Positions 8,937 to 55,348 of a stretch of DNA of 64,000 nt are shown piece by piece. This DNA is from a virus: IMG/VR virus record IMGVR_UViG_3300045988_183236, positions 35,677-99,676 of that record, one strand, 5' to 3'. The position numbers and the translations under genes were made by a program. Under the pieces are notes generated by a model that was not told where the DNA came from, made no database searches, and worked only from the letters and a program-made list of their open reading frames with translations. The stretch's first letter is position 1; each line of letters starts with the position of its first letter.

Positions 8937-9239
8937 ATGTCAACAACCTCCACCTGAAGGAGGGGCTTAAAATCCCGCAGGATTCCAATAATTCTCACTC
9001 AATGGATTTTTACAGCACGGTTCCGTCCGTGCGACCAAGTATCTATGAGCTTTCACCGCTGTTGCGGGCGGCATAGCGGGAGTGAGGAAATTGGATTTAT
9101 GCGGGATATAATCCCAACAATCCAACATTACGTATGTTTATAGCGGCATTGTGGTCGCGGTTATGTGTTGTACCGCAGCCACTGCATGTCCAACTTCTGT
9201 CTGCCAGTGTAAGGTCATCTTTTATAAGACCACCATTTC

Positions 9240-9791
9240 TTAAACTATGTATGCATCACAATGCTGCTTTTTCCAGTACAGGTCATCGATGATATCCGAA
9301 AGGTACTGGTTTTGCTTTAAGACGAAAAACGATACCGGATTATGCTTTACGATGAAACCAAGTCCCGTTCGTTCATCGTAAATATCTTTCATGTGGTTCA
9401 GCCACTTTGAAAAATTTTTGATATGGGAATTATCTCGAAGTATAAACCTGCCGAACCATTGCTGCTTAATGATTTGTCTTTCCTTTGCTCGCTCTTTGGA
9501 TTCTTGTTCATTCCATACGATATTGTCAGGTTCGACAATTACATAGGGAATCTTCTGCCTATCCATTTCGTCTATGACGGATTCCGTTTGGCAAACGAAG
9601 ATAAAATCATATTTTCCTGATTTTGCCTCTTTCATGAAGCTATTTATGTATTCTTTTTCCCATCCGGCAGTTTTTTCATAAGTAGAACTATCACTATCCC
9701 GCATTGAATAGCCATATTTGTTTTGGTGATTCGCGAGCCATGTTTTTCCGCAGCCCGCAAATACGCTTACGACCATTGTTCGTCTCATCAA
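9240..9791 (-). CDS. P-loop NTPase/kinase-like protein
   Basis: Walker A-like VFAGCGKTW near N-terminus; 183 aa. Confidence 0.5.
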
Positions 9792-10729: not shown

Positions 10730-11992
10730 TCACTTCCTTTCGATTAAATAGTTTGTTGCAGGCTCTAATAGTCGCAGTTTTTTAAATGAAATGCTATTCG
10801 TAATGGTTGTACCATCGAATTTTCTTAAAGCGAAATATCCCGATGACCTGCGTCCTGAAATAAAACATTCCTGCTCGTTATAGAGCACCTTGTCCCAGAG
10901 GCGAAATCCTTTAACGATATAGGGCGCTTGATTTGCTTTTCGAATTCCACCTTTCAAGATTTTCGCTTTATGGATTTGCCGATTGTGGTGTCGAATTGCC
11001 TTCGTGCGGTAACAAACACTGCAAGGTTTAGCTAGTGGATGCTTGCTAATACAACGGGCATCGTTAACATGGCTTTTCTTGATGTCGTTTTGTTCACGTA
11101 ACAACTTGGTTATATAGCCATATGTGTTTTGTACTGGAATATTAAGTTCGTTGCGTAGGCGTGTCAGTAGTGTGTTACGCATGATACCCATAAAAGCCGC
11201 ATCGCGAAGCGTTTTACCACGTTTTTTGCCGTCAAGTGTTATCTTCCCTTTATGGAGGTTGTTGTGGCAAGTGGTACACAAAGTGATAAGGTTGCTTGGT
11301 GCATTACCGCCCACCTTACGGCTTTCAAAGTGATGTACATGCAGCTTGACGGTTTTCTTTGCGGTGGTATGAGCACCACAGCATTGGCATGTATAGTTAT
11401 CACGCTTCAAAACATACTGGCGAACATTGTATTCGTCGTACATCTCACCGAGTTGGTAGTCGGTTCCTACCGGCAGAGGCTTTCCGGCAAGCATTGCTTT
11501 TAAGCGTTGCGTGTCAAACTCTGCAGTTTCTACTCTTACAAGAGTGATAGGCAAAATTCGACAGATGCGCTTGATAACAGTAATGTGCTCTTGGATTTTT
11601 ACTTCTACCGAAGGTGCAAGCCAACCCTTATGTTTGCTGTGTACACGGTTATTGAATCTTGGCGCACGGTAACGAGTTTTGCGATTTCGCCTTGAACGGC
11701 GGTTCTGTCTGCGCGTAGATAGCAATTCTACTACATCGTTGCGAGGAGTGAACTCCTCACTGTAGAGTTCGCGCTTCTCTGTAGATGCAGACAAGCCAAC
11801 ATGCTTGCTGCCCGCATCTACACCAAGAGTGATAGGCTGTTTGTATCCCGCACTTCCATGCAGGAGTTTGATGGTGAACGGCGTGCGTTTTACAACGCAA
11901 GCTTTTTGCTGTTTCAACAAGATGCGAGCCTTTCCGGGTGAGCAAGGCATCAAGGGCTCGCCGCGCTTGTTAAGTACATACGCATATTGCAT
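10730..11992 (-). CDS. iscB: IscB RNA-guided endonuclease (PLMP, RuvC-I, HNH, RuvC-III)
   Basis: N-terminal ...RGEPLMPCSPGKARILL (PLMP domain), LGVDAGSKHVG (RuvC-I), CQCCGAHTTAKKTVKLHVHHFESRKVGGNAPSNLITLCTTCHNNLH (HNH), HVNDARCISK (RuvC-III); 420 aa. Confidence 0.8.
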   Translation of the reverse strand: MQYAYVLNKRGEPLMPCSPGKARILLKQQKACVVKRTPFTIKLLHGSAGYKQPITLGVDAGSKHVGLSASTEKRELYSEEFTPRNDVVELLSTRRQNRRSRRNRKTRYRAPRFNNRVHSKHKGWLAPSVEVKIQEHITVIKRICRILPITLVRVETAEFDTQRLKAMLAGKPLPVGTDYQLGEMYDEYNVRQYVLKRDNYTCQCCGAHTTAKKTVKLHVHHFESRKVGGNAPSNLITLCTTCHNNLHKGKITLDGKKRGKTLRDAAFMGIMRNTLLTRLRNELNIPVQNTYGYITKLLREQNDIKKSHVNDARCISKHPLAKPCSVCYRTKAIRHHNRQIHKAKILKGGIRKANQAPYIVKGFRLWDKVLYNEQECFISGRRSSGYFALRKFDGTTITNSISFKKLRLLEPATNYLIERK

Positions 11993-13839: not shown

Positions 13840-14211
13840 ATGGACGCGACAATGCAGACGGTTCTCCGGCTCCATGAGCAAGGTATACCTAGAAGAACCA
13901 TTGCCAAACGTGCAGGCATCTCATTGCAGAAAGTGCGCAAAATACTGATTACAGCCGGGGCATGGTCAGATGAAACATCAGAAAAAATCGGGAAGCTGCG
14001 TGCGAACGGTATGTCAGTTCCTGAAATCGCAGAAGAATTGGGTGTAAAAACCAATACTGTTTGGAGCTATTTGCCATACAGCAAAGGCATGTATAATCAA
14101 GAATATCCGACCATTAACGCCATTCGAGTCCGAAATTCGAAGCGAAAAGCAAAAGAAAAAGCCCTCACCTGCACGGATACCGCACAGAATGAGGGCAGTG
14201 GCGCTTGCTGA
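13840..14211 (+). CDS. tandem-HTH DNA-binding protein (two resolvase/sigma-r4-like HTH units)
   Basis: IPRRTIAKRAGISLQKVRKIL and MSVPEIAEELGVKTNTVWSYL repeats; same repeat family as 23696-25827 and 47511-48050. Confidence 0.55.
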   Translation: MDATMQTVLRLHEQGIPRRTIAKRAGISLQKVRKILITAGAWSDETSEKIGKLRANGMSVPEIAEELGVKTNTVWSYLPYSKGMYNQEYPTINAIRVRNSKRKAKEKALTCTDTAQNEGSGAC

Positions 14212-14286
14212 AGGATTCGAACCTTCGGACAGTCTCCCATCGTCGGTTTTCTGGACCGATTTCATCAACCACTCGAACAAGCAAGC
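14199..14286 (-). tRNA. tRNA, Ser-type (long variable arm) with non-canonical anticodon loop CCAGAAA (C33; anticodon AGA?)
   Basis: RC gives GCTTGCT acceptor / AGCAAGC-G-CCA, T-arm GAAGG-TTCGAAT-CCTTC, anticodon arm TCGGT-CCAGAAA-ACCGA; 88 nt. Confidence 0.55.
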
Positions 14287-14289
14287 AGA

Positions 14290-14379
14290 TGGCGCAGAGG
14301 GTGAGATTCGAACTCACATGCCGCGATTTCCGCGACGGCAGCTTAGCAAGCTGCTGCCCTACCGTTAGGCGACCTCTGC
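14290..14379 (-). tRNA. tRNA-Ser(GCT)
   Basis: GCAGAGG...GCAGC-TTGCTAA-GCTGC...long variable arm...GTGAG-TTCGAAT-CTCAC-CCTCTGC-G-CCA; 90 nt. Confidence 0.7.
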
Positions 14380-14410
14380 ATAATGCACCTTTTTGACATA
14401 GGTGCTTGTA

Positions 14411-14484
14411 TGACCCCTGGCAGACTCGAACTGCCGACTCCACATTGAGAGTGTGGTGACTTAGGCCAACTTGTCGAAGGGGCC
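14411..14484 (-). tRNA. tRNA-Glu(CTC) (CCA not encoded)
   Basis: Acceptor GGCCCCT/AGGGGTC, anticodon arm CCACA-CTCTCAA-TGTGG, T-arm GGCAG-TTCGAGT-CTGCC. Confidence 0.55.
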
Positions 14485-14487
14485 TTA

Positions 14488-14574
14488 TGGTGTGCCGGGC
14501 TGGATTCGAACCAGCGAACCGAAACGGAGCGGTTTTACAGACCGCCTGCTTTAACCTCTTGCATACCGACACAT
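14488..14574 (-). tRNA. tRNA-Tyr(GTA)
   Basis: GTGTCGG acceptor, GCGGT-CTGTAAA-ACCGC, long variable arm, TTCGAAT T-loop, CCA. Confidence 0.7.
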
Positions 14575-14575
14575 A

Positions 14576-14651
14576 TGGTGCTCCCGGCTGGAATCGAACC
14601 AGCGACACGCGGTTCTTCAGACCGCTGCTCTACCAACTGAGCTACAGAAGC
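14576..14651 (-). tRNA. tRNA-Phe(GAA)
   Basis: TAGCTCAGTTGGTAGAGC D-arm, GCGGT-CTGAAGA-ACCGC, TTCGATT T-loop, CCA. Confidence 0.7.
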
Positions 14652-14652
14652 A

Positions 14653-14732
14653 TGGTGACCCGTGTGGGTTTCGAACCCACAATAACCTCCGCCTTGAAAG
14701 GGCGGCAACTCTACCAATTCGTCCAACGGGCC
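14653..14732 (-). tRNA. tRNA-Glu(TTC) (80 nt, long D/variable region)
   Basis: GGCCCGT acceptor, CCGCC-CTTTCAA-GGCGG, GTGGG-TTCGAAA-CCCAC, CCA. Confidence 0.55.
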
Positions 14733-14761
14733 ATATATAGCCGCAATCCTGCGGCGAGGGT

Positions 14762-14983
14762 TTATGCGATGACAAGGATGTCATCTATCTTGGTATCCAG
14801 CATTGCTGCTAATATCACAAGGTTATCGATGGTGGGAAGCGCTGTTCCGGCTTGCCATTTAGCAACCGCCTGCGGAGACACACCGAGCATGTCTGCCACA
14901 TCCTTCACCTTGATGCCTGCTGCCTTTCGCAGGGCCTTGATATTGGCACCTGTCTGCTGGATATCAATAGTAGGAACGTTCAT
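14762..14983 (-). CDS. XRE-family HTH transcriptional regulator
   Basis: ALRKAAGIKVKDVADMLGVSPQAVAKWQAGTALPTIDNLVILAAML = Cro/C1-type HTH; embedded in tRNA array. Confidence 0.65.
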   Translation of the reverse strand: MNVPTIDIQQTGANIKALRKAAGIKVKDVADMLGVSPQAVAKWQAGTALPTIDNLVILAAMLDTKIDDILVIA

Positions 14984-15240
14984 TTTTCTTGCTGCCTTTC
15001 TGTATTGCAGGCAACAAAAAAGCTGCCTGCCGAAATCTCGACAAGCAGCTATGACATGCAGTTATCGCTTAGAAGACGCACCGCATCTGTACATGGTCTG
15101 TTTTTGCCTGTCGAGGAGTATGAGAAATAAAACTGCGTTCAAAGGACATGAACTCAGAATATTCGTAACTATACTCATACGGCATGACATTAACAGTGTT
15201 GCACAGCATTTTGGGGTATCTCCTTTCGTTTCGTTCTGAT

Positions 15241-15272
15241 ATTATTATACCATGTTTTCGCAAGTTCGCAAT
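15241..15272 (-). promoter_or_regulatory. promoter, TGCGAA-class variant (TTGCGA-N16-TATAAT)
   Basis: RC ...TTGCGAACTTGCGAAAACATGGTATAAT upstream of XRE gene. Confidence 0.35.
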
Positions 15273-15316
15273 CAACTTGTGGTTTAGTTTTTTGGTCTGT
15301 ATACTCTCCAAAACAA

Positions 15317-15350
15317 AAAGCCGCCTCTTATGTGAGGACGGCTTTTCTTA
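15317..15350. terminator. bidirectional rho-independent terminator at end of tRNA block
   Basis: AGCCGCCTC-TTATGT-GAGGACGGCT flanked by A-run and T-run. Confidence 0.55.
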
Positions 15351-15353
15351 TTG

Positions 15354-15429
15354 TGGCAGGGGTAACACGACTCGAACATGCAACAAGCGGTTTTGGAGAC
15401 CGCTGCTCTACCACTTGAGCTACACCCCT
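15354..15429 (-). tRNA. tRNA-Trp(CCA)
   Basis: AGGGGTG-TA-GCTCAAGTGGTAGAGC-A-GCGGT-CTCCAAA-ACCGC...TTCGAGT...G-CCA. Confidence 0.7.
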
Positions 15430-15437
15430 ATATAGAT

Positions 15438-15511
15438 ACTCCAGCTGGGAGTCGAACCCAGAGTAAAACGGGACTTAAAGCCGCCGCGTTTGCCAGTTTC
15501 GCCACTGGAGC
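15438..15511 (-). tRNA. aberrant tRNA-like gene / pseudo-tRNA (good acceptor and T-arm, no canonical anticodon stem; loop region contains UUUAAG)
   Basis: GCTCCAG...CTGGG-TTCGACT-CCCAG-CTGGAGT-A; anticodon region GGCGGCTTTAAGTCCCG cannot form 5-bp stem with 7-nt loop. Confidence 0.4.
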
Positions 15512-15514
15512 ATA

Positions 15515-15590
15515 TGGCGGGTTGTACAGGGTTTGAACCTGCGGCCCACGGATTAACGGTCCGTTGCTCTACCAGCTGAGCTAACAACCC
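15515..15590 (-). tRNA. tRNA-Asn(GTT) with C33 (loop CCGTTAA)
   Basis: GGGTTGT-TA-GCTCAGCTGGTAGAGC-A-ACGGA-CCGTTAA-TCCGT...GCAGG-TTCAAAC-CCTGT...G-CCA. Confidence 0.65.
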
Positions 15591-15619
15591 ATAAATGGCA
15601 GTTGTTGTACTGCCGGACA

Positions 15620-15697
15620 TGGTACTCCCCGAGGGATTCGAACCCTCAAAACGGTGCGGTTTGAGCGCACTGTGTCTGCCAATTTCACCAGAGGAGC
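15620..15697 (-). tRNA. tRNA-Leu(CAA) with Leu-type D-arm but short variable arm (78 nt)
   Basis: GCTCCTC-TG-GTGAAATTGGCAGACAC-A-GTGCG-CTCAAAC-CGCAC-CGTTTT-GAGGG-TTCGAAT-CCCTC-GGGGAGT-A-CCA. Confidence 0.55.
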
Positions 15698-15700
15698 TTA

Positions 15701-15776
15701 TGGCGGGCGTAGCAGGATTTGAACCTGCGACAAACGGATTAACGGTCCGCCGCTCTGCCTACTGAGCTATACACCC
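15701..15776 (-). tRNA. tRNA-Asn(GTT) with C33 (loop CCGTTAA), second copy
   Basis: GGGTGTA-TA-GCTCAGTAGGCAGAGC-G-GCGGA-CCGTTAA-TCCGT...TTCAAAT...G-CCA. Confidence 0.65.
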
Positions 15777-15807
15777 ACAAAAGTGGCAGATAATGCTCTG
15801 CCGGGCA

Positions 15808-15883
15808 TGGTGCGCTCGCGGGAAATCGAATCCCGAACACCCCGATTAAAAGTCGGGTACTCTACCGATTGAGTTACGAGCAC
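15808..15883 (-). tRNA. tRNA-Lys(TTT)
   Basis: GTGCTCG-TA-ACTCAATCGGTAGAGT-A-CCCGA-CTTTTAA-TCGGG...TTCGATT...A-CCA. Confidence 0.7.
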
Positions 15884-15963
15884 TTGTCGCGCATCTTCCG
15901 TGCCTTGCTTATGGGAACACAGCTTCGAAGAATCTCACTTCCGATGCGCATGAAAGTGAGCGT

Positions 15964-16037
15964 TGGCCGAGAATGGTCGAGTCGAACAACCGTTGTCAGG
16001 GTCAAAGCCTGATGCCTTACCGTTTGGCGAATCCTCG
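15964..16037 (-). tRNA. tRNA-Gln(TTG)
   Basis: CGAGGAT acceptor/ATTCTCG-G-CCA, TCAGG-CTTTGAC-CCTGA, GGTTG-TTCGACT-CGACC. Confidence 0.6.
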
Positions 16038-16430
16038 AATATACATTATGTATAATAGCATACACTTTAATAAGCCTGGCTGGAATTCACTCCAGCGGCA
16101 TTAGAGTGACCTGATTCTGATTTTCTGCATCAAAAAAGCACCCATCAGGCGTTGTGCGTCTGACAGGTGCTCATATCGTGCAGAGTATGGAAAACAACCG
16201 ATACTTGGATGATTTTATTCAACCATCACTGCACTATGATTTGCACAAACAGACAACACAAAACAGCCGAAGAGATTCCAATTGCTCCACAGCTTTTGCA
16301 ATTTATTCTGTTTGTTCATCATAGCAGCAAACATCGTGCAATTTTCCTTTCATCAAATTCAGTGTCTATATTATACAATGTGTAAAATACAAAGTCAAGG
16401 CTTTTCATAAAAATAATAGCAGGCCCACGC

Positions 16431-17180
16431 TTATTGTTTGTCTGGCTTCCAAGCCACAATCCGCACTATCACATTCGAGAGCAGTACGTCCTCATACGAG
16501 CACAGTACGCCTAAAGCGTTAGCCATTCTGGACTCGTAGTCAGCCAAAGCCAGGTCGATGGGCGCGTTAATTTCAGCAGAACCATCCGTTGTTCCCAGAA
16601 CGGGAGGCCTCGTGCTTTTCCTTTTGACGCTCCAGTTGTTTGCCAGCAAGTAGTCGTACAGTGCATACGGATTAACTGCGCTTATACCTTCTCTCGATGA
16701 CAGTATCGTATATGCCCGCTTGTATTTTCTGGTTCTTTCCAAGTCTCTTTTAGTTGGAGTGTGAGGGAGCCTGGTTAAGTCCATGTTGCTGCGCAGGTCC
16801 GAGAGCTTCACTTTGACAGCAATCGAATTTTGCTGAATATACCAAAGATATTCAGCATACGATATACCCTTGCTATGGGTCAACGCACTCACAGCGTCAG
16901 CAACCTCTTTTGGAAACCCCGTTCTGATGTCTTCTATTGTGACGGACGTATCTTCGACCGTATCATGCAGAAATGCCACAGCCTCGGCTATTGGGTCACC
17001 TTTTACGCCTTCTGCTACAACCGTAACGTGCGCTTTGAAGTAGTCCTGCCCAGCCTTGTCTTTTTGCCCGGCATGAGCCTTAACAGCCCAAGCTCTGGCT
17101 TTGGCAACCATCTCAATGTCAGACTGCTTCCACTCTAAAGGAATCGTAATGTTCACTTGTACGCTTGATTTTTTTGCCAA
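16431..17180 (-). CDS. RelA/SpoT-type HD-domain hydrolase (small alarmone hydrolase-like, (p)ppGpp pyrophosphohydrolase family)
   Basis: N-terminal AHAGQKDKAGQDYFKAHV and AVAFLHDTVEDT motifs = RelA/SpoT HD hydrolase signature; 249 aa, no synthetase domain. Confidence 0.7.
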   Translation of the reverse strand: MAKKSSVQVNITIPLEWKQSDIEMVAKARAWAVKAHAGQKDKAGQDYFKAHVTVVAEGVKGDPIAEAVAFLHDTVEDTSVTIEDIRTGFPKEVADAVSALTHSKGISYAEYLWYIQQNSIAVKVKLSDLRSNMDLTRLPHTPTKRDLERTRKYKRAYTILSSREGISAVNPYALYDYLLANNWSVKRKSTRPPVLGTTDGSAEINAPIDLALADYESRMANALGVLCSYEDVLLSNVIVRIVAWKPDKQ

Positions 17181-17359
17181 CTATATCACCTCATACATAT
17201 ATTATGTATGTATTCTGTGCCGTCAGTCAAACTGCTCAACGAATATTTTACAAAAAATCAAAAAGAGCCATTCATCCCACAGGCAAGCCTGCAGGTTTTC
17301 TGGCTCTCAATTATAACCCTATTCGATATAGCAATCTGTTGCCTTGTATTGCTCACAAA

Positions 17360-17386
17360 AACAAAAAAGCCGGGAAGTCCCGGCAA
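17360..17386 (-). terminator. rho-independent terminator after tRNA-Ser(TGA)
   Basis: RC GCCGGGACUUCCCGGC + UUUUUUGUUUUUG. Confidence 0.55.
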
Positions 17387-17389
17387 ACA

Positions 17390-17478
17390 TGGCGGCCAGA
17401 GTGGGATTCGAACCCACGGACGTTTGCGGCGTCGCTGGTTTTCAAGACCAGTTCCTTAAACCACTCGGACATCTGACC
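17390..17478 (-). tRNA. tRNA-Ser(TGA)
   Basis: GGTCAGA...CTGGT-CTTGAAA-ACCAG, long variable arm, GTGGG-TTCGAAT-CCCAC, G-CCA; 89 nt. Confidence 0.7.
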
Positions 17479-17561
17479 ACAAAAGGATGGGGCGGGACCG
17501 AAATCCCGCCCCACAGCAAGGAGAAAAAACTATCGATTACCGTTAGTTAGAGGATGGCAAA

Positions 17562-18695
17562 TTAGTGGATGCCCAGGGAAGCGGCATAAGCAGCTTCACG
17601 AGCGGCAACCTGTGCCTGCAGAGCAGCGATGGAAGCGGCATAAGCGGCTTCACGCTTTTCAGCAGCAGCCTGAGCTTCAGAGGTAGAAGCGTACTGGGGT
17701 TCATTGCCGGCCAGAGTGCCAGCATAACCCTTGACGCCATCAGCGCCCTTGACAGTCAGGACTTCGTGACCACAATGGTCACAGACGTAAACGTTACCTT
17801 TGCGGGTCCAGTTGTGATAGCCACAGCTGGTGCAGACGGTGTACTCATTGCCCCAGGTGCCATTGGCAATAGCGGCGGCAATTTCACCGTGCTCAGAGAC
17901 TTCAACGTTCTTGTGAGGAGCGGTCGGAGTAGTGGTGGTAGTACCGTTGCCCTTGTTGGAGCCGGTAGAAGTGTTGTCCTTACCGGTGTTGTCCTTATCG
18001 GGGGCCACTACGTCGCCCTTGTCATCGGGAGTGGTGGTGCCGCTGTCGCCGGTATTGTCGCCCTTGTTGTCGCCCTTATCGTCGGGGTTGGTGACATCGC
18101 CCTTGTCATCGCCCTTGTTGTCATCCTTGCCGTCATCGGGAGTGGATGCAGAAGTGGCTTTCAGGGTCAGGACGTTGTCGTGGATGTCGTCGCCCAGGTA
18201 GTAGAACAGGCGGTCATGGTTCAGGCTCTTGCTGGATGCGGTGTAAGTATCACCGGAATCCGTGGTCCAGGCTTCAACGCTCTGACCATCAACGCTGCCG
18301 GGGAAAGTGGCAGTGTCAGTTTCGGTCAGCACAGTGTTGCCGTCAATCTGATAGTTGATGGTGATGGAACGCGGATTACCTTCGGCCGCATAGCAGGAAG
18401 TGATGCCGTCAGCGGTGAACCACTGGTCAACTGCATCGTACGGCAGAGTGTCGCCGGGATAGTAGTTGTAGGTGTAGCCGCCGTGGCCCTGCAGGGTAAT
18501 CCAGTAACCGTAGTCATACTGGCTTGCCGGGAACGTCATAGAGCCGCCCGGAGCCAGGTCCTGGGAAGAACCGTTGCTGAAAGAGAAATGATAGGTGTCG
18601 CCGGTGGCTGCGAATGCTGCGACAGGCAGACAAGTTGCCATCATACCGGCTGCTGCAATCCCTGCGATTGCTTTGATGATTTTCTGATTACTCAT
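17562..18695 (-). CDS. secreted protein with Asp/Lys-rich (PDDKGD) repeats and C-terminal Cys4 zinc-ribbon-like motif
   Basis: Start MSNQKIIK (AAAGGAG RBS), signal peptide ...LPVAAFAATG; low-complexity DDKGD repeats; CTSCGYHNW...CDHCGH. Confidence 0.55.
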   Translation of the reverse strand: MSNQKIIKAIAGIAAAGMMATCLPVAAFAATGDTYHFSFSNGSSQDLAPGGSMTFPASQYDYGYWITLQGHGGYTYNYYPGDTLPYDAVDQWFTADGITSCYAAEGNPRSITINYQIDGNTVLTETDTATFPGSVDGQSVEAWTTDSGDTYTASSKSLNHDRLFYYLGDDIHDNVLTLKATSASTPDDGKDDNKGDDKGDVTNPDDKGDNKGDNTGDSGTTTPDDKGDVVAPDKDNTGKDNTSTGSNKGNGTTTTTPTAPHKNVEVSEHGEIAAAIANGTWGNEYTVCTSCGYHNWTRKGNVYVCDHCGHEVLTVKGADGVKGYAGTLAGNEPQYASTSEAQAAAEKREAAYAASIAALQAQVAAREAAYAASLGIH

Positions 18696-18795
18696 GCTGT
18701 GTACTCCTTTGCTTTTTTGATTTTTTCGTCTATTTATCTGCATTTATTCAGATACCGGTTTGAAAGAAATCAGCCGCAGCTTTGCTGCGTTGCCC

Positions 18796-18855
18796 ACCAT
18801 CTGCCACGTGGAGGCTTTCTCATGGATGGTTGACGAAGCAGATATGTGCTTCGCC
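18796..18855. other. conserved covarying hairpin motif, instance 1 (core GCCACGTGGAGGC) plus second hairpin
   Basis: ACCATC-tGCCACGTGGAGGCtttctcat-GATGGT then CGAAGCA-gatatg-TGCTTCG; in 5' leader of gene 17562-18695. Confidence 0.4.
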
Positions 18856-19054
18856 AGTGTCGCAACCGTCTTCGCCACTCGACACAATTTCGGTTTGAAT
18901 TTATCCCCGTAAAATCGCATGTCCATGCTGCGCGGAGAGGATAAAATTCTTCGTGGTATGGTTTCGGAGTTCCGCGCCTGATTGGCCGTACTACACGCAA
19001 TGCAGTACAATACCCCAGATACCTTTGGCGAAAGGAAGCGAAAGGGTGTCTGGA

Positions 19055-19130
19055 TGGAGAAGGGAGATGGCCTCGAACCATCGATACCCTGCTTTGCGGC
19101 AGGTGCTTTATCCAGCTAAGCTATCCCTCC
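19055..19130 (-). tRNA. tRNA-Cys(GCA)-like with non-canonical anticodon loop (6-nt CGCAAA or 8-nt CCGCAAAG; no U33)
   Basis: GGAGGGA-TA-GCTT...AAGC-A-CCTGC-CGCAAA-GCAGG-GTATC-GATGG-TTCGAGG-CCATC-TCCCTTC-T-CCA; 76 nt. Confidence 0.5.
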
Positions 19131-19160
19131 ATGATGGCGGGTCAAGCCCGCCAAATAGCG

Positions 19161-19553
19161 TTACGCAAACTGGAAGTCGCCGTACTGAGTCACGGCGCGT
19201 TCCAGGCGCAGAGGAATGGTTTTTGTGCTCTTCTGAGTGATGTCTTCGCGTGCTACCTGAGCTTCACTCACGCCAGCCGCCTGCAGGACTTCATACAGAT
19301 TGGAAGGACCAGTACCAGCATAACCGCAAGTCAAGCCATTAACCTGAAGTGTAAAGCCGTGCAGATGCGGTGCCAAGCCGGGCACGAAATCAAGTTCGAC
19401 AATGACCTCATCGCTCTTATCGTTCACACGATTGACCGAGATGGCGCGGACGTTCTGATTGCCAAGCATCCCAATCAGCTTTTTGGCTGCTGCAGCGGTT
19501 TCAATGGTAGTTGTACCTTCGACATTGATAATTGCCTGTTCCATAAGTTTCAT
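19161..19553 (-). CDS. hypothetical protein
   Basis: 130 aa ORF between tRNA genes. Confidence 0.45.
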   Translation of the reverse strand: MKLMEQAIINVEGTTTIETAAAAKKLIGMLGNQNVRAISVNRVNDKSDEVIVELDFVPGLAPHLHGFTLQVNGLTCGYAGTGPSNLYEVLQAAGVSEAQVAREDITQKSTKTIPLRLERAVTQYGDFQFA

Positions 19554-19582
19554 CTCCTTTCTATTATCGCTTCATTGGGTAA

Positions 19583-19658
19583 TGGGGCTTGATGGCAGGT
19601 TCGAACTGCCGACCTGCGCGTTACGAATGCGCTGCTCTACCAACTGAGCTAATCGAGC
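19583..19658 (-). tRNA. tRNA-Thr(CGT)
   Basis: GCTCGAT-TA-GCTCAGTTGGTAGAGC-A-GCGCA-TTCGTAA-CGCGC...GGCAG-TTCGAAC-CTGCC-ATCAAGC-C-CCA. Confidence 0.65.
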
Positions 19659-19930
19659 ACGATAGGGTGTTTTATGCTGGTCACCCCTTGAGCGAGAAGC
19701 CAACTCGCATCCAGCACCATTCGATAGCTGCATCGATGGATTCTGCTTTATACCCTTTCCGCTGTTTTCCGGTCTTATTCGCGACTAACACCGGGACTTT
19801 CGAATACTTTCAGGCACAGCACCTGTTTGTCTATTATTTTTGAGGCTGTCTCATCGACATTTGGACAGCGGACCACAAGTGGACCATGCTCACCAAGTTT
19901 AACGTCGTGGCGTACGGTGACTGCGACGTG

Positions 19931-20005
19931 TGGAGCAAGTAGCGGGGGTCGAACCCGCGTCTCCGCCTTGGAGGGGCGGAGTATTAGCCGTTATACGATA
20001 CCTGC
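19931..20005 (-). tRNA. tRNA-Gly(TCC) with C33 (loop CCTCCAA)
   Basis: GCAGGTA-TC-GTATAACGGCTAATAC-T-CCGCC-CCTCCAA-GGCGG...GCGGG-TTCGACC-CCCGC-TACTTGC-T-CCA. Confidence 0.6.
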
Positions 20006-20374
20006 ATAAAATTGCGGGTGAACCCTCACTTAGCCCCGCCATGACATCCGTTTAGTAGGTCGTCATCCCCGGATGTCATCTTCACACCACCTGACAATCT
20101 TGCGAACCTCATCGTTGACGATACGCGAGAATCCAAGAAAGCGCTTGGGTGTTGGTCAACTTCAAATTTTGAGCCCTGTCGTTGATTCCCTGTCAAATCG
20201 GGTTAACGGTTGTCGTTGGGCTGTGTGTGAGACTGCGGCGAAACTTACCAGTTGCCGTGCAGCAATCTCGCCTTTACGGCTGTGTCGCGTCTGGATGCGC
20301 CCCGACTTGACGGGGATGCTCGTACGTTTGCATGCTTCTAAGACATTCGTCAGCAGCCGCAAGAGCCGCTGTCC

Positions 20375-20408
20375 GCCACCCGCCACGAGGAGGCCGCCTT
20401 AATGGGTG
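20375..20408. other. conserved hairpin motif, instance 4 (core GCCACGAGGAGGC)
   Basis: CCACCC-GCCACGAGGAGGCcgccttaat-GGGTGG; flanked by direct repeat ctgtccgcca. Confidence 0.35.
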
Positions 20409-20478
20409 GCATGCTGTCCGCCAGATGTTGTGTATAGCATCGTATCATGTGATTTCGATACATCCAACGGATAGCGTC

Positions 20479-20554
20479 TGGAGCTGGAAATCGGACTTGA
20501 ACCGATGACCGACTGATTACAAATCAGTTGCTCTACCAGCTGAGCTAAACCAGC
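20479..20554 (-). tRNA. tRNA-Thr(TGT) (two mismatches at base of acceptor stem)
   Basis: GCTGGTT-TA-GCTCAGCTGGTAGAGC-A-ACTGA-TTTGTAA-TCAGT...ATCGG-TTCAAGT-CCGAT-TTCCAGC-T-CCA. Confidence 0.55.
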
Positions 20555-20600
20555 AAATACAAACATTAGCCAGATGCCCGGAACACGGAAACATCTGTTG

Positions 20601-20660
20601 CCCACCGTCCGCCGCGTGGAGGCTGTTTGCTTGGACGGCTGGCGCGGAGTTACCCGCGCC
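20601..20660. other. conserved hairpin motif, instance 2 (core GCCGCGTGGAGGC) plus GC hairpin
   Basis: CCGTCC-GCCGCGTGGAGGCtgtttgctt-GGACGG then GGCGCGG-agtta-CCCGCGCC. Confidence 0.4.
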
Positions 20661-37023: not shown

Positions 37024-38043
37024 TCAAATAACGCGTCGCAGATACGACTTATTGATTTCTACCAACAGTTCTTCAATCTTCCCACAGTCTGGCTTTGCAG
37101 GAAGCGCAGTCTTCTTCACATCATACTGAAATCTCTTTTCGAGTGCATCAACAAGCTCAAAGAATTCGGGTGCGTACGACCCGTCTTCACGCAGGTACTT
37201 GCCGTTGCGAATCGCCAACAGTTCCTCGCGTTCCTTGTCTCGGTGAGTGATAATCTCGCCTTTTTCCAGAATATCGAACGCCGTGTAGTACAACCGCACA
37301 ATGTGCATCGCGTGTTTGTTGATGTGGGCAGCATCTTTTTGTGCTTTCGGATGCTGCGGCTGCTCATACTGGTCGATGGTCGTAGTCAGACTCTTTAGCA
37401 GCGACTTTAGAGAGGTGACTGGATAATCGTTCAAGCTGCCAGAAATCAGGAGCGGATGTTTGCCTTCTTCATCCGCATCTTCACTGATGGTGATTTCAAA
37501 GATATTATCCTTTCCCCATCCAGCAATCGCCCGTTCCAGACTCCTCTTCTCGAATTTGTTTTTGAGCGCCTCCGGCGAGACTCTGTTGCGAAGCAAACCC
37601 ATCTGCAAACGTCTGAGCTGGTCGTTTGCAAAGCCGCCATAGCTGTAGGCAATGCGCCGAGTCAAGAACAGTTCCCTATTGTCAAGCAGCATTTGGCCTT
37701 CCGGCGTCATGTTCACATATAGCTCCGGGTCATTGCCAAGAAGTTCGATAATGCTGGGATTACCCTGCGCAAGCAAGCCGACAAACTTGTTCACAGCGTA
37801 GATGACTGTATCTGTCCGGTTGTCAATGGCCTGCTCGAAGCGGTTAAACCCTAAGATTTCGGGTGAGCCTGCCACGCCACGTATATCGATATCGGAGCCT
37901 TCGACGTTGGTTCCGTAGGCATGACTGCCGCTAAGCGTTAGGAATAAAATGTTGCTCCCCAAGTGTTTGTTGGTGTGCAGGAAATCGTATTCCTCGCGCT
38001 GGACGATTGCTTTTAGTTCTGCGTTTGTCATAGGCTTTTTCAC
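37024..38043 (-). CDS. Pol-beta superfamily nucleotidyltransferase (GS-x9-SDIDI motif; MNT/CD-NTase-like)
   Basis: LTLSGSHAYGTNVEGSDIDIRGV matches hG[GS]x9-13[DE]h[DE]h; 339 aa. Confidence 0.55.
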   Translation of the reverse strand: MKKPMTNAELKAIVQREEYDFLHTNKHLGSNILFLTLSGSHAYGTNVEGSDIDIRGVAGSPEILGFNRFEQAIDNRTDTVIYAVNKFVGLLAQGNPSIIELLGNDPELYVNMTPEGQMLLDNRELFLTRRIAYSYGGFANDQLRRLQMGLLRNRVSPEALKNKFEKRSLERAIAGWGKDNIFEITISEDADEEGKHPLLISGSLNDYPVTSLKSLLKSLTTTIDQYEQPQHPKAQKDAAHINKHAMHIVRLYYTAFDILEKGEIITHRDKEREELLAIRNGKYLREDGSYAPEFFELVDALEKRFQYDVKKTALPAKPDCGKIEELLVEINKSYLRRVI

Positions 38044-38200: not shown

Positions 38201-38746
38201 TTATTTCTGGAGTTCCCAAATCTCAACATTCAGATTCCAGGCTTTTGCTGCATCGCTGATGATGTCCAGAACCGTATTCCAGTCACCTCCGGCAAGTCCG
38301 CAGCCTAAACCATATGGCAACCGGATAGTTACGTCCTGATACTTTTGAGCGCAGTCTCTAAAAAACGAGAACAGCGCAGCCGCCAGTGCAGCATAATTCG
38401 TCTGCCTTTCACCTCGGCTATAACCATTCTGCCCGAACAGATTCACGACATACAGCTTCGGTTCTACCAGAACCTCCTGGTAAGTACCGAGCTTGTTGCC
38501 GTCGTTTCCATAGCAAAACTCCAGATAGCGCTGATATACCACCGGCCATTGGATGCAAATTTGCATGGCAAGTCCAGCTCCCATTACACCTTTACAATTC
38601 ACTTGTTGGCAGATATATGTCGTCTTGTTCGTTGACAGTCGTGAAAAAATATTGCCATCGACAAAATTTACGCTCATCTCACTTACCACCTTTTCCAAAT
38701 TTCGAAGCATTCCCTGGATAGATGGTGTAGTCCGTGCCATAATCAA
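38201..38746 (-). CDS. macro domain protein (ADP-ribose binding/processing)
   Basis: YICQQVNCKGVMGAGLAMQI = macro-domain N-x-G-x-G-G-G-like nucleotide-binding loop; 181 aa. Confidence 0.65.
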   Translation of the reverse strand: MIMARTTPSIQGMLRNLEKVVSEMSVNFVDGNIFSRLSTNKTTYICQQVNCKGVMGAGLAMQICIQWPVVYQRYLEFCYGNDGNKLGTYQEVLVEPKLYVVNLFGQNGYSRGERQTNYAALAAALFSFFRDCAQKYQDVTIRLPYGLGCGLAGGDWNTVLDIISDAAKAWNLNVEIWELQK

Positions 38747-42068: not shown

Positions 42069-42521
42069 TTATTTGCCAGCTTGCTTTTTCAATTTATCCC
42101 TCGTTTCCATCAGAATAGTTCCAAGCCGGTTTTGACCTGGGATGTTCTGGCATTTCGGGCAGTGGCAGTTGCCCCAGTAATTGTCATGCCAGCTGGTCGT
42201 GTCTTCCTCAATAGGCTGCGTACCCGTTTCGAGGAGACGCTGCTTGAGGTCTTCATTCTGTTCGAATTTAGCCATCACCACGCGGCGCATCACGTCGTCC
42301 CGAGCCTCATCCCAGTTTGCGGGGATAGCTACATTGCGGCCAAAGCGCTTGGCAGAAGCCGGTGGCATGTCCGCAAACTGTCTGCGCTCTTCCAGTGGGA
42401 CCTTGTGACTCTGGAATGCTGCCTCGGCGTTCTTGTAACGAATTCCATTCATCACAAATTCGCAAGGATAATAGTTGCTCATGAACCAACTACGGTGGTT
42501 CTCTTTCTTAACTCGAATCAT
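42069..42521 (-). CDS. NADAR (YbiA/DUF1768) domain protein
   Basis: Start MIRVKK (AGGAGA RBS); SNYYPCEFVMNGIRYKNAEAAFQSHK...W matches NADAR family N-terminal signature. Confidence 0.65.
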   Translation of the reverse strand: MIRVKKENHRSWFMSNYYPCEFVMNGIRYKNAEAAFQSHKVPLEERRQFADMPPASAKRFGRNVAIPANWDEARDDVMRRVVMAKFEQNEDLKQRLLETGTQPIEEDTTSWHDNYWGNCHCPKCQNIPGQNRLGTILMETRDKLKKQAGK

Positions 42522-42543
42522 GCAAATTCTCCTAATTTCTAAC

Positions 42544-43098
42544 TCAGGCGGCACTTTTATCGCTGCCGTTCTTTTTCTCTGCCGCTGCACTCAACAGGCT
42601 ATCAAACAACTCAACTGCCGTAGACACAAACATCTGGCTCTGCATCGAGATTTTTCTCCGCTCCGGAGTCTGCCCTTTCATGTGTGCAGCGGCACTATAA
42701 ATTGCTGCCAAAACCTTGTGCTTCATCAAAGCAGATTCTTTGATATCCGCGTTATCAGCAGCAAGGTAGTTGGCAAGGTTATAGGCCCGTCCAAGCATCA
42801 GCTCATCGTACAGCGGAGCATTGTGCTGGACCATGGTAGTGTAAACAGCAGGTTGTTCTCCGAAAGTGCTGAATCGGATGCCTCGGAATCCAGAATTCAG
42901 CTCATACAAAAGCGCGAGGCGTTCGGTCAGAAATACTGCAGTTTCGGAGAGTTTTTTTGCCATTTCGTCAGGCAATGAAGCAGTATTGTCCTGCCGTACC
43001 GCGTGCAGAATTTTTTTGGCTAAAAGCCGTTTCGCATATTCCTGCACATCGTGGTCAAGCTCGTAGCAAATGTGGCTTGCTGTTTTGTCTGTACGCAT
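42544..43098 (-). CDS. hypothetical protein
   Basis: 184 aa. Confidence 0.45.
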   Translation of the reverse strand: MRTDKTASHICYELDHDVQEYAKRLLAKKILHAVRQDNTASLPDEMAKKLSETAVFLTERLALLYELNSGFRGIRFSTFGEQPAVYTTMVQHNAPLYDELMLGRAYNLANYLAADNADIKESALMKHKVLAAIYSAAAHMKGQTPERRKISMQSQMFVSTAVELFDSLLSAAAEKKNGSDKSAA

Positions 43099-53704: not shown

Positions 53705-55348
53705 TTAATCTTTGGCCTTTTTGTCTTTCATGATAGCCTTCTCTTCTTCGGTCACATCCGGTCGAAAATGAGTGACTTCCTCACCGTTGAGATTCTTCTC
53801 ATGAATCAGATAGCCGCCTTCTACGCGTTCCATTGCCTTGGCACCTCCTTTCTCTTTGTTATTCTCAGGCTGTTCACATTGAGTCATAATGTTGATGTTG
53901 CGGTCTGTCTTTGCCTGGATGCTGTTGGCACGGACAATTTCGCCCATGTCAATGCCGGTCGCTTCTTTCACCGTCTGCATGGTTTGAGCCATCAGGATAG
54001 GAACGTTCCCGGAAACGCCGGATACGCCGGAGGCATCACCGCCAATGATAGAAACCTTATCAATGCTGGACAAAGGCTGAGCCACGCTCTTGGCAATGTC
54101 AGGAAGAACCTTGATGAGCATTTCAGCCACAGCCGCATCGTTATACTGCTTATATGCCTCTGCTTTCTGTTTCATGGCTTCCGCTTCAGCCAAGCCTTTC
54201 TGACGAATCGCTTCAGCTTCTGCCTTACCGACAAGCTCAATGCCTTCTGCTTCCTGCTGCTTAGAGAACTTCTGTGCCTCAGCTGCACGTTCCGCCTCAT
54301 ATTTCTTGGCTTCTGCCTCTTTCTGGCGGCGGTACAGGTCAGCATCTGCCTGTTTGCGGACTTCCGCATCCAGTTTGCGTTGCTGGACCTCGGCTTCCTG
54401 TGCGGCAAGGTCTACCATTTTCTTCTGCTTGGCGATTTCAGCATCCGCTTCCGCTTCTTTGATTTCTTTGGCGCGGAGATTCATCTGAATCTGACCGGCA
54501 GCATCTGCGTCAGCCGCAGCTTTATCAGCTTCAGCTTTCAGCTTTGCCTTGGCGAGCTGCAATTCATTGTTGCGTTTTGCAATCGCAGTCTGCGCTTCAA
54601 CTTCCTTGGCATTTGCAGCCATCTCAGCATCGGCCTTCGCGCAGGCTACATCACGGGCAGCCTGAGCACGGGCAATTTCAGCCTGTTTCTTTACGAGCTC
54701 TTCCTGTTCGATGCCGATAGCTTCGATAACGCCGTGATTGTGGCCCTGAACATCCACTGCATCCCTGATGTCCTGGACATTAAAAGTCACGACCTCAAGT
54801 CCCATCTTAGCAAGGTCGGGGCGAGCATTCTCGATAACGCTCACAGCCATCTGCTTGCGGTTCGTCAGAATTTGGTCAACGGTCATATCGGAGACAATCT
54901 CTCGCAAATTGCCCTGCAGAACGTCATTGACTTTGTCATTGATGCCCTGCTCGTTCATGCCGAGAAAGTTCGAGATGGCTGCCTGCTGGCGGGACATGAT
55001 GTACGCCTTGGCGTCTTTCAGACCGGATGCCTTCACTTCTTCATCCAGAACGGTAGAGTTTTCGCTGTAGACTTGAATCGTGACAACAGAGTCAATCCAG
55101 AGACTTACGCCGTTCTTCGTCTTAACACCTGTTTCAGGAGTCTTGACATCGATTTTCAAAAGGCGCATATTTAGTCGGTCAGCCCGTTGAAGAACGGGCA
55201 GAACAAATGTACCCTTTCCGCAAACCACTTTAGGCTTAGACAGGCCAAAGCCAGTTACAACGATAGCCTCCGTGGGCGGAGCTTTCTTGTAGCAGAGAAA
55301 TCCAAAGAGAATAATCAGGGCTGCTACAATTCCAATCACGTATACCAT
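53705..55348 (-). CDS. flotillin-like SPFH/Band-7 domain protein
   Basis: N-terminal TM + SPFH fold motifs (VVTGFGLSKPKVV...GTFVLPVLQR...) followed by long Ala/Glu/Gln-rich coiled coil typical of FloA/YqiK. Confidence 0.7.
   Translation of the reverse strand: MVYVIGIVAALIILFGFLCYKKAPPTEAIVVTGFGLSKPKVVCGKGTFVLPVLQRADRLNMRLLKIDVKTPETGVKTKNGVSLWIDSVVTIQVYSENSTVLDEEVKASGLKDAKAYIMSRQQAAISNFLGMNEQGINDKVNDVLQGNLREIVSDMTVDQILTNRKQMAVSVIENARPDLAKMGLEVVTFNVQDIRDAVDVQGHNHGVIEAIGIEQEELVKKQAEIARAQAARDVACAKADAEMAANAKEVEAQTAIAKRNNELQLAKAKLKAEADKAAADADAAGQIQMNLRAKEIKEAEADAEIAKQKKMVDLAAQEAEVQQRKLDAEVRKQADADLYRRQKEAEAKKYEAERAAEAQKFSKQQEAEGIELVGKAEAEAIRQKGLAEAEAMKQKAEAYKQYNDAAVAEMLIKVLPDIAKSVAQPLSSIDKVSIIGGDASGVSGVSGNVPILMAQTMQTVKEATGIDMGEIVRANSIQAKTDRNINIMTQCEQPENNKEKGGAKAMERVEGGYLIHEKNLNGEEVTHFRPDVTEEEKAIMKDKKAKD

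Follow-up and report, generated by a model that had tools for sequence, protein, structure and literature searches.

A tRNA gene array carried by a phage of the human gut encodes, among its 18 tRNAs, five in which the anticodon is not preceded by uridine at position 33 (U33) of a seven-nucleotide loop. The array lies on the minus strand, at 14199-20554, of a 64,000-nucleotide stretch of viral DNA (positions 35,677 to 99,676 of IMG/VR record IMGVR_UViG_3300045988_183236), which we refer to throughout as the window. U33 forms the U-turn by which the anticodon is presented, and for this reason it is among the most conserved nucleotides in biology. In four of the five genes it is replaced by cytidine (C33), and the fifth has a six-nucleotide loop without it. 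Judged by their sequences, all five look fully functional as working elongator tRNAs, and C33 has probably been either tolerated or selected in them. The reading we prefer is that C33 insulates these tRNAs against host proteins able to recognize the anticodon loop by its U33 face, a mechanism that we infer and to which we assign a probability of roughly 37%. We found no earlier description of U33C or C33 in phage tRNAs in the literature searched.

ARAGORN finds 18 tRNA genes between 14199 and 20554, all on the minus strand, and draws a four-arm cloverleaf for every one of them. The Rfam tRNA covariance model (RF00005) also recovers all 18, at 46-69 bits against a 29-bit cutoff; 17 were recovered at the gathering threshold in a first model pass and the remaining gene, a Cys-like tRNA, was recovered separately at 46.4 bits. 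The number and coordinates of the genes are the same by both methods and agree with the original prediction, which had been made by folding the sequence by hand. None of the 18 tRNAs carries a stop anticodon.

In four genes, ARAGORN and the Rfam model alike place C at position 33 of a seven-nucleotide loop. Two are copies of tRNA-Asn(GTT), at 15701-15776 (copy 1, C33 at 15744) and 15515-15590 (copy 2, C33 at 15558), which share the loop CCGTTAA and, at 68.5 and 67.1 bits, are among the best scorers of the array; copy 1 aligns with C at model position 33, and the acceptor stem of copy 2 differs from that of copy 1 through compensated changes. The tRNA-Gly(TCC) gene (19931-20005, 56 bits) has the loop CCTCCAA, with C32-C33 and C33 at 19973, and the tRNA-Ser(AGA) gene (14199-14286, 47.6 bits) combines a long variable arm with the loop CCAGAAA, with C33 at 14253 and A34. 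The fifth gene, the Cys-like tRNA with a GCA anticodon (19055-19130), has the six-nucleotide loop CGCAAA at 19098-19093. All five encode CCA, and their discriminator bases fit their anticodons: G73 in Asn and Ser; U73, G1:C72, and C2:G71 in Gly; and U73 together with GCA in the Cys-like gene. The identity-element rules used for this matching are reportedly those of Giege et al. 1998. The original prediction had proposed C33 for both Asn genes, for Gly(TCC), and for a Ser-type tRNA, and automated folding gives no U33 in any of these.

The other 13 tRNAs of the array, at 14290-20554 on the minus strand, have U33 in a seven-nucleotide loop: Ser(GCT), Glu(CTC), Tyr, Phe, Glu(TTC), Trp, Leu(TAA), Leu(CAA), Lys(TTT), Gln(TTG), Ser(TGA), Thr(CGT), and Thr(TGT). 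Eleven neighbors of the C33 genes, and Leu(CAA), had been predicted to share both U33 and A37; U33 is indeed present in all 13, whereas A37 is replaced by G37 in Phe (CTGAAGA) and Leu(TAA) (TTTAAGT). The two Leu genes, Leu(CAA) at 15620-15697 and Leu(TAA) at 15435-15512, both on the minus strand, have short variable regions, unlike the long arm of bacterial tRNA-Leu. Leu(TAA) has no encoded CCA and has a C31-C39 mismatch, and in eight related contigs its slot is occupied by Ile(TAT), with the loop TTTATGT instead of TTTAAGT, an anticodon switch.

The frequency of tRNAs without U33 in this array is well above that in other phages. The background set was retrieved by means of a U33 Asn pattern from 75 IMG/VR phage loci unrelated to the window and comprised 420 distinct tRNAs. 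U33 in a seven-nucleotide loop is present in 409 of them and lacking in 11 (2.6%), a rate exceeded about 10 times by the 5 of 18 in the array. At a background of 2.6%, the probability of at least five such tRNAs among 18 is 8e-5, and by our own estimate it is ~1e-3 if the two Asn copies are counted once. We also considered a rule that would tie C33 to C32, and rejected it: C32 accompanies almost all C33 cases, yet it is already found in 71% of U33 tRNAs, and the association is not significant.

To follow the C33 loops in relatives of the phage, we scanned IMG/VR with tRNA backbones that left position 33 unspecified. The Gly backbone carries C33 in 71 of 71 contigs and the Ser(AGA) backbone in 82 of 82, the Cys-like backbone has its six-nucleotide loop in 72 of 72, and every family member caught by the Asn scan, which was blind to position 33, has C. 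Because the same loops recur in 71-82 independent contigs, they are not an assembly error. Sampled members of this contig lineage are 96-98% identical to the window, however, so that the contigs count as one lineage. For this reason we dropped conservation in at least 70 contigs as evidence of selection and turned to a comparison with distant lineages.

Deeper relatives were found via homologs of the HD_4 gene that lies inside the array. In L382/L383, which form a sister lineage with identities of 87% in protein and 93% in DNA, the Gly, Ser(AGA), and Cys-like genes retain the same loops, and the Asn gene is absent from the stretch fetched. A distant syntenic lineage (L385-L389) shows 55-57% protein identity, and only about one-third of its DNA can be aligned, at ~77%. 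Its Gly(UCC) ortholog is 76% identical, with CCTCCAA kept and the stems compensated, and its Ser(AGA) ortholog is 75% identical, with CCAGAAA kept. Its Asn gene keeps CCGTTAA although the anticodon stem has gone from GCGGA/UCCGU to GCGGG/CCCGU. Compensatory pairs number 7 of 25 in Ser(AGA), 10 of 20 in Gly, and 11 of 21 in Asn, where 99% of the stem cells are paired across 23 distinct C33 sequences on at least five backbones. Since the stems change with compensation, the C33 genes appear to have evolved as working tRNAs with C33 in place.

By these comparisons, the C33 of Asn, Gly, and Ser(AGA) is an old state that arose before the split from the ~77%-identity lineage. New gains of C33 are seen as well: in the distant lineage the Glu(TTC) loop reads CCTTCAC where L382 has CTTTCAC, the backbones being identical at 74 of 77 positions, and Thr(TGT) has gone from TTTGTAA to CCTGTAA in the family member L039. 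Across the lineages compared, no reversion to U33 was found in Asn copy 1, Gly, or Ser(AGA), and replacements at position 33 in this clade are always C and never a purine. An extra Asn tRNA with U33 accompanies the C33 copies in L043, L068, L075, and L385-L389. The original prediction had called the C33 set a systematic one on an accessory element; this description stands, and to it can be added that the set is evolutionarily stable.

C33 also appears outside this clade. Among IMG/VR contigs and one contig of a metagenome-assembled genome, the unrelated phages L253/L285 carry Met CCCATAA, Thr CCTGTAA, and Pro CCTGGGA; L270 carries Gly CCTCCAA on a different backbone; L140 carries a C33 Asn together with Lys CCCTTAC; and L085 carries a C33 Asn together with Gln CCCTGGA. 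A C33 Asn tRNA occurs in two further phage families. Because arrays of unrelated phages contain several C33 tRNAs each, the phenomenon is not confined to the clade of the window. The independent evolutionary depth amounts to three lineages plus scattered unrelated phages.

The Cys-like gene departs from the usual loop in a different way. Its anticodon stem has 5 bp (CCTGC/GCAGG) closing the six nucleotides CGCAAA, ARAGORN labels it "tRNA-?(Cys|Leu)", and its Infernal alignment has model position 33 deleted, all of which agrees with the loop lacking U33 that had been proposed for it. The missing base is either position 32 or position 33, and in either case no U precedes the anticodon. In L385/L387, the same slot, between Thr(CGT) and Ser(TGA), holds an ordinary Ala(TGC) tRNA (9215-9290) with the loop TTTGCAA or TTTGCGA, G3:U70, and A73. 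The anticodon stems of the two are identical and the D-arms very similar, whereas the Cys-like gene has a re-paired acceptor stem, U73, and GCA in the anticodon frame. We therefore regard it as probably a remolded Ala(TGC) tRNA: an indel in the 5' part of the loop would shift the anticodon by one base, from UGC to GCA, and the acceptor end would then move toward Cys identity. Other tRNAs with anticodon loops of unusual size, such as frameshift suppressors and yeast mitochondrial tRNA-Thr1, resemble this gene in departing from seven nucleotides, but the best known of them have 8-nt loops rather than six; here no signal for frameshifting or recoding was seen, though none was searched for.

To ask what the array may do for the phage, we compared codon usage in 46 phage open reading frames with that in 26 genes of host-like contigs, a host assignment that is itself an indirect guess. 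The phage has a guanine-plus-cytosine (GC) content of 47%. Codons read by the tRNAs without U33 are enriched in the phage (GGA 2.95-fold, UCU 3.43-fold, AAU 2.28-fold, and UGU 2.69-fold), and codons read by the U33 tRNAs are enriched similarly (AAA 3.5-fold, GAA 2.8-fold, CAA 3.2-fold, and UCA 4.5-fold). This enrichment fits a translational role and argues against the tRNAs being decoys. The best explanation for the array as a whole is that it would supply tRNAs for codons used far more by the 47%-GC phage than by its host. Like the codon-compensating arrays of other large phages, it matches A/U-ending codons that are over-used relative to a higher-GC host; it belongs to the ordinary class of phage tRNA arrays and behaves like a codon-compensating set. 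Codon compensation, however, does not predict the loss of U33.

We propose that C33 serves as an anti-determinant: host proteins that recognize the loop from its U33 side would act only poorly on the phage tRNAs. The readers evaded could be anticodon-loop nucleases directly, or else the synthase of N6-threonylcarbamoyladenosine at position 37 (t6A37) and the transglycosylase that inserts queuosine, whose modifications would serve such nucleases as handles. In either case, the phage copies would remain usable even as host tRNAs came under attack or were depleted by the host itself. A pyrimidine is reportedly the replacement at position 33 that is least harmful to ribosome binding, a finding attributed to Dix et al. 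(1986) and to Ashraf et al. (1999), and this mildness would account for the change being always to C. E. coli TsaBCDE cannot add t6A37 to a U33C tRNA, C33 being an anti-determinant for it (PMC8887486), and a statement in PMC1635277, citing Nakanishi 1994, has tRNA-guanine transglycosylase requiring U33-G34-U35 (UGU). Because C33 blocks t6A synthesis and removes the UGU, neither t6A nor queuosine would be expected in the phage Asn tRNA. As to nucleases, the title of a cited reference names t6A as a positive determinant for PrrC, and PrrC cuts 3' of U33 (PMC2610378), a statement on the cut site and not on base dependence. Phage tRNAs rescue infection from tRNA-cleaving defenses (PMC10264068, PMC12409363), and escape from nucleases fits this current view of phage tRNAs, the gene context, and the inclusion of all four E. 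coli AriB targets in the array. C33 thus possibly hides the phage tRNAs from host enzymes, and the nuclease-escape idea is plausible but unproven.

Several observations weigh against this reading. Colicin E5 and the K. lactis gamma-toxin each cut a C33 substrate as well as a U33 one (PMC1635277, PMC2275089), and the determinants of AriB, the PARIS nuclease, lie at positions 36-41 and not at 33 (PMC12409363). The premise of the original prediction, that U33 is an identity element for several anticodon nucleases, is therefore weaker than it was put, being in keeping with the PrrC cut site and at odds with these three enzymes. Its suggestion that changes in the anticodon loop allow escape from tRNA-cleaving defenses fits the phage-tRNA literature as a concept, but phage T5, the tested exemplar, has U33 in all 22 of its canonically folded tRNAs (ARAGORN). 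Within the array, Lys, Thr, and Tyr, the classic nuclease targets, retain U33, and the modification route explains Asn only, as Gly(UCC), Ser(AGA), and Cys(GCA) are not substrates for t6A or queuosine. The presence of C32 beside most cases of C33 adds little, given its 71% frequency in U33 tRNAs. With the 71-82 contigs reduced to one lineage, independent depth rests on one sister and one distant lineage, and at ~25% divergence three unchanged sites would not be significant alone. Finally, we infer the difference from host tRNAs, and the nuclease is hypothetical. There is also a bolder form of our proposal, which we put forward tentatively and consider somewhat unlikely: that C32-C33 loops are a recurrent, selected device that would hide phage tRNAs from host readers of the loop while leaving them competent on the ribosome, with position 33 as a self/non-self mark, and with the same clade showing a change from Ala to Cys-like identity through a loop indel.

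Some of these points would be expected if C33 had no adaptive role at all. Where host tRNAs back up the phage copies, selection would be relaxed, and a U-to-C transition, the mildest replacement, could have been fixed by chance in an ancestor and inherited since. Tolerance elsewhere is evident from the ~2.6% of unrelated phage tRNAs that lack U33, most of the apparent conservation comes from a single lineage whose identity to the window is 96-98%, a divergence of ~25% would quite often leave three sites unchanged, and the extra U33 Asn tRNAs beside C33 copies in L043, L068, L075, and L385-L389 suggest redundancy. Drift nevertheless sits poorly with a rate ~10 times background, with the visible purifying selection on the rest of these tRNAs, whose scores are among the array's best, with replacements that run always to C and never to a purine, and with the lack of reversion to U in Asn copy 1, Gly, and Ser(AGA) while new C33 gains occur. 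We regard tolerated drift as possible but rather doubtful. An unlikely account is that C33 tunes decoding, without any link to defense, by leaving the wobble base and A37 unmodified and so altering codon reading. Asn would then have G34 in place of queuosine and no t6A, and unmodified U34 in Gly(UCC) and A34 in Ser(AGA) could permit four-way reading of the GGN and UCN boxes, in the manner of those Mycoplasma tRNAs that combine C32 with an unmodified U34 or A34. C32 reportedly lets a UCC anticodon read all GGN codons (work attributed to Lustig 1993 and Claesson 1995), and Gly(UCC) here carries C32. Broader reading would be useful to an array that has one Gly tRNA and none for UCC codons; the effects of C33 on E. 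coli t6A synthesis and on the UGU motif of the transglycosylase point the same way, and the three ancestral C33 tRNAs are, by our reckoning, all normally modified at position 34. On the other hand, MnmEG and TadA are not known to require U33. Tyr(GTA), likewise a queuosine tRNA, keeps U33; unmodified G34 would favor AAC, but it is AAU in which the phage is enriched; and the six-nucleotide Cys-like loop goes unexplained.

A further three explanations fare worse. It is quite improbable that C33 protects these tRNAs from a U33-dependent nuclease of the phage itself, which would deplete host tRNAs and give the phage control over Asn, Gly, Ser, and Cys decoding. The window does encode HD_4, phospholipase D (PLD)-type nuclease, metallo-beta-lactamase (MBL)-fold, and HNH proteins, and a passage in PMC10879173 cites host tRNA loss during lytic infection by other phages. 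No tRNA nuclease family was recognized among the window proteins, however, the HD_4 fold is of the (p)ppGpp-hydrolase type, and the 13 phage tRNAs with U33 would be unprotected. Mimicry of a host whose core tRNAs for these anticodons carry C33 is very unlikely: U33 is described as conserved in bacterial tRNAs (PMC13276492), and the Asn and Gly backbones, which vary between phage lineages while C33 stays, do not look like recent copies taken from a single genome. The Asn C33 15-mer CGGACCGTTAATCCG, for which ~1,000 chance matches were estimated in 596 Gb, was scanned against one genome per species and gave a single tRNA among the 120 matches listed, inside a phage-like tRNA array, the other 119 being chance matches outside tRNAs; this bears weakly on the rarity of C33 Asn in bacteria. 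We consider it extremely unlikely that the genes are non-translational, as pseudogenes or as decoys that soak up a host enzyme. The abnormal loop size of the Cys-like gene and the Leu(TAA) gene, with its C31-C39 mismatch and lack of encoded CCA, might suggest this, but it is contradicted by the high model scores, by identity elements and CCA that are intact, by stems that evolve with compensation, and by the fit of the tRNAs to codons enriched in the phage.

The proposed insulation of the phage tRNAs by C33 finds its closest parallel in the T5-type tRNA sets that act against PARIS AriB, retron-associated nucleases, and PrrC (PMC10264068, PMC12409363, PMC11555353). There, and presumably here too, a large lytic-type phage carries an array that duplicates host isoacceptors and has substitutions in the anticodon stem-loop. 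The escape changes of T5 mapped to date are at positions 39 and 41, however, whereas the change in the window is at the near-invariant U33 and affects Asn, Gly, Ser, and Cys-like tRNAs, with a cognate nuclease that is hypothetical. Multicellular eukaryotes offer a second parallel in their initiator tRNA-Met, which functions in the cytoplasm and naturally has C33. The initiator enters the P site, whereas the window tRNAs are bacterial-type elongators that need the A site; to our knowledge, natural C33 is known for eukaryotic initiators and not for bacterial-type elongators. In the initiator, C33 is an anti-determinant for both the bacterial and the yeast t6A machinery (PMC8887486).

Proteins homologous to those of the window lie on contigs of 226-280 kb, from which we conclude that the window is a piece of a jumbo phage. 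The phage is common in human-gut assemblies. Searched with the array and with the 26-50 kb region, the GenBank phage collection yielded no relative, only short matches to tRNAs. Phage-type proteins of the window include a tail lysozyme, a UvrD-like helicase, an RRXRR/HNH endonuclease, an AAA ATPase, and many helix-turn-helix proteins; the HD_4, PLD-type nuclease, MBL-fold, and HNH proteins are nuclease-fold or uncharacterized enzymes. A flotillin/SPFH gene (53705-55348, minus strand) is 83-85% identical to genes in ordinary bacterial chromosomal settings on contigs of 58-63% GC, a match that suggests recent transfer and is the one clue obtained to the host lineage. Promoter-like sites (TTGACx-17-TATAAT) and strong AGGAG ribosome-binding sites in the window point to a Bacillota-type host. 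Because the flotillin resembles genes on contigs of 58-63% GC, the host is probably a high-GC, Oscillospiraceae-like member of the Bacillota. No tRNA genes occur on the host-like contigs.

The element had been taken to be a mobile one, and its identification as a jumbo phage agrees with this, as do its genes of counter-defense type. An RNA-repair nucleotidyltransferase of the RlaP family (PF10127, E 1.8e-20) is encoded at 37024-38043 on the minus strand, adjoined by a gene for a DarG-like macrodomain (38201-38746, minus strand), and a NADAR domain protein is encoded nearby (42069-42590, minus strand). The RlaP family repairs damaged tRNA 3' ends (PMC12776372). Together, the three genes resemble a cluster for repair and for reversal of ADP-ribosylation; no RNA ligase was found beside RlaP. 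Inside the array, at 16431-17180 on the minus strand, is the HD_4 gene, of the RelA/SpoT-type hydrolase fold (PF13328, E 4.8e-9), whose homologs, at 49-93% identity, all lie within phage tRNA arrays and are syntenic in all relatives. Its product may be a small alarmone hydrolase, and enzymes of this kind reportedly reverse the tRNA 3'-end pyrophosphorylation carried out by toxic RelA/SpoT homologs. The window also has an RRXRR and HNH (IscB-like) endonuclease gene at 10730-11992 on the minus strand. In the sister phage L382 (7971-8229 and 8284-9684), a similar RRXRR and HNH gene follows a HEARO RNA (RF02033, 90.6 bits) and, together with an IS605 OrfB/TnpB gene, is inserted within the tRNA array.

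The array is further associated with predicted self-cleaving RNAs. A hepatitis delta virus (HDV)-like ribozyme (RF02682, 50 bits against a gathering score of 44) is predicted at 20559-20639 on the minus strand, 4 nt upstream of tRNA-Thr(TGT), and is preceded by a promoter-like site at 20829-20801 (TTGACC-17-TATAAT with TG) and a GC hairpin. Two weaker ribozyme-like elements, at 18763-18830 (40.7 bits) and 20339-20410 (34.1 bits), both on the minus strand and below the RF02682 gathering score, begin 68 and 224 nt after tRNA 3' ends. The first of these lies directly upstream of a gene in the middle of the array (17562-18743, minus strand) for a predicted secreted protein of 393 residues, with D/K/G-rich repeats and Cys-x-x-Cys pairs, for which no family match was found. 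In relatives, copies of the ribozyme (L382 4807-4887; L387 9782-9855 and 6398-6473) precede Thr(TGT), Ser(TGA), and Met(CAT) by 4-7 nt. Such a ribozyme would free the tRNA precursor from upstream RNA and itself stay behind as a leader for removal by RNase P. The theta ribozymes, minimal HDV-like ribozymes associated with tRNAs of gut phages (PMC10879173), share with those of the window an HDV-like fold within a gut-phage tRNA array. They lie in the 3' trailer of the tRNA, where their self-cleavage generates its 3' end, whereas the best copies here are 4-7 nt upstream of one, and they often occur with suppressor tRNAs or stop-codon recoding, to which nothing corresponds among the anticodons of this array (0 of 18).

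Overall, an abundant clade of gut phages that keeps C33 over long evolutionary distances, in several elongator tRNAs that are codon-matched and canonical in other respects, shows that bacterial translation tolerates C33 in nature. The clade also makes natural pairs of U33 and C33 tRNAs available, as with Glu(TTC) in two sister phages and the C33 and U33 copies of Asn within one genome. If C33 does block modification or cleavage by the host, it would represent a new and easily recognized class of counter-defense change in phage tRNAs, and it would provide a rule by which tRNAs orthogonal to anticodon-loop enzymes could be designed.

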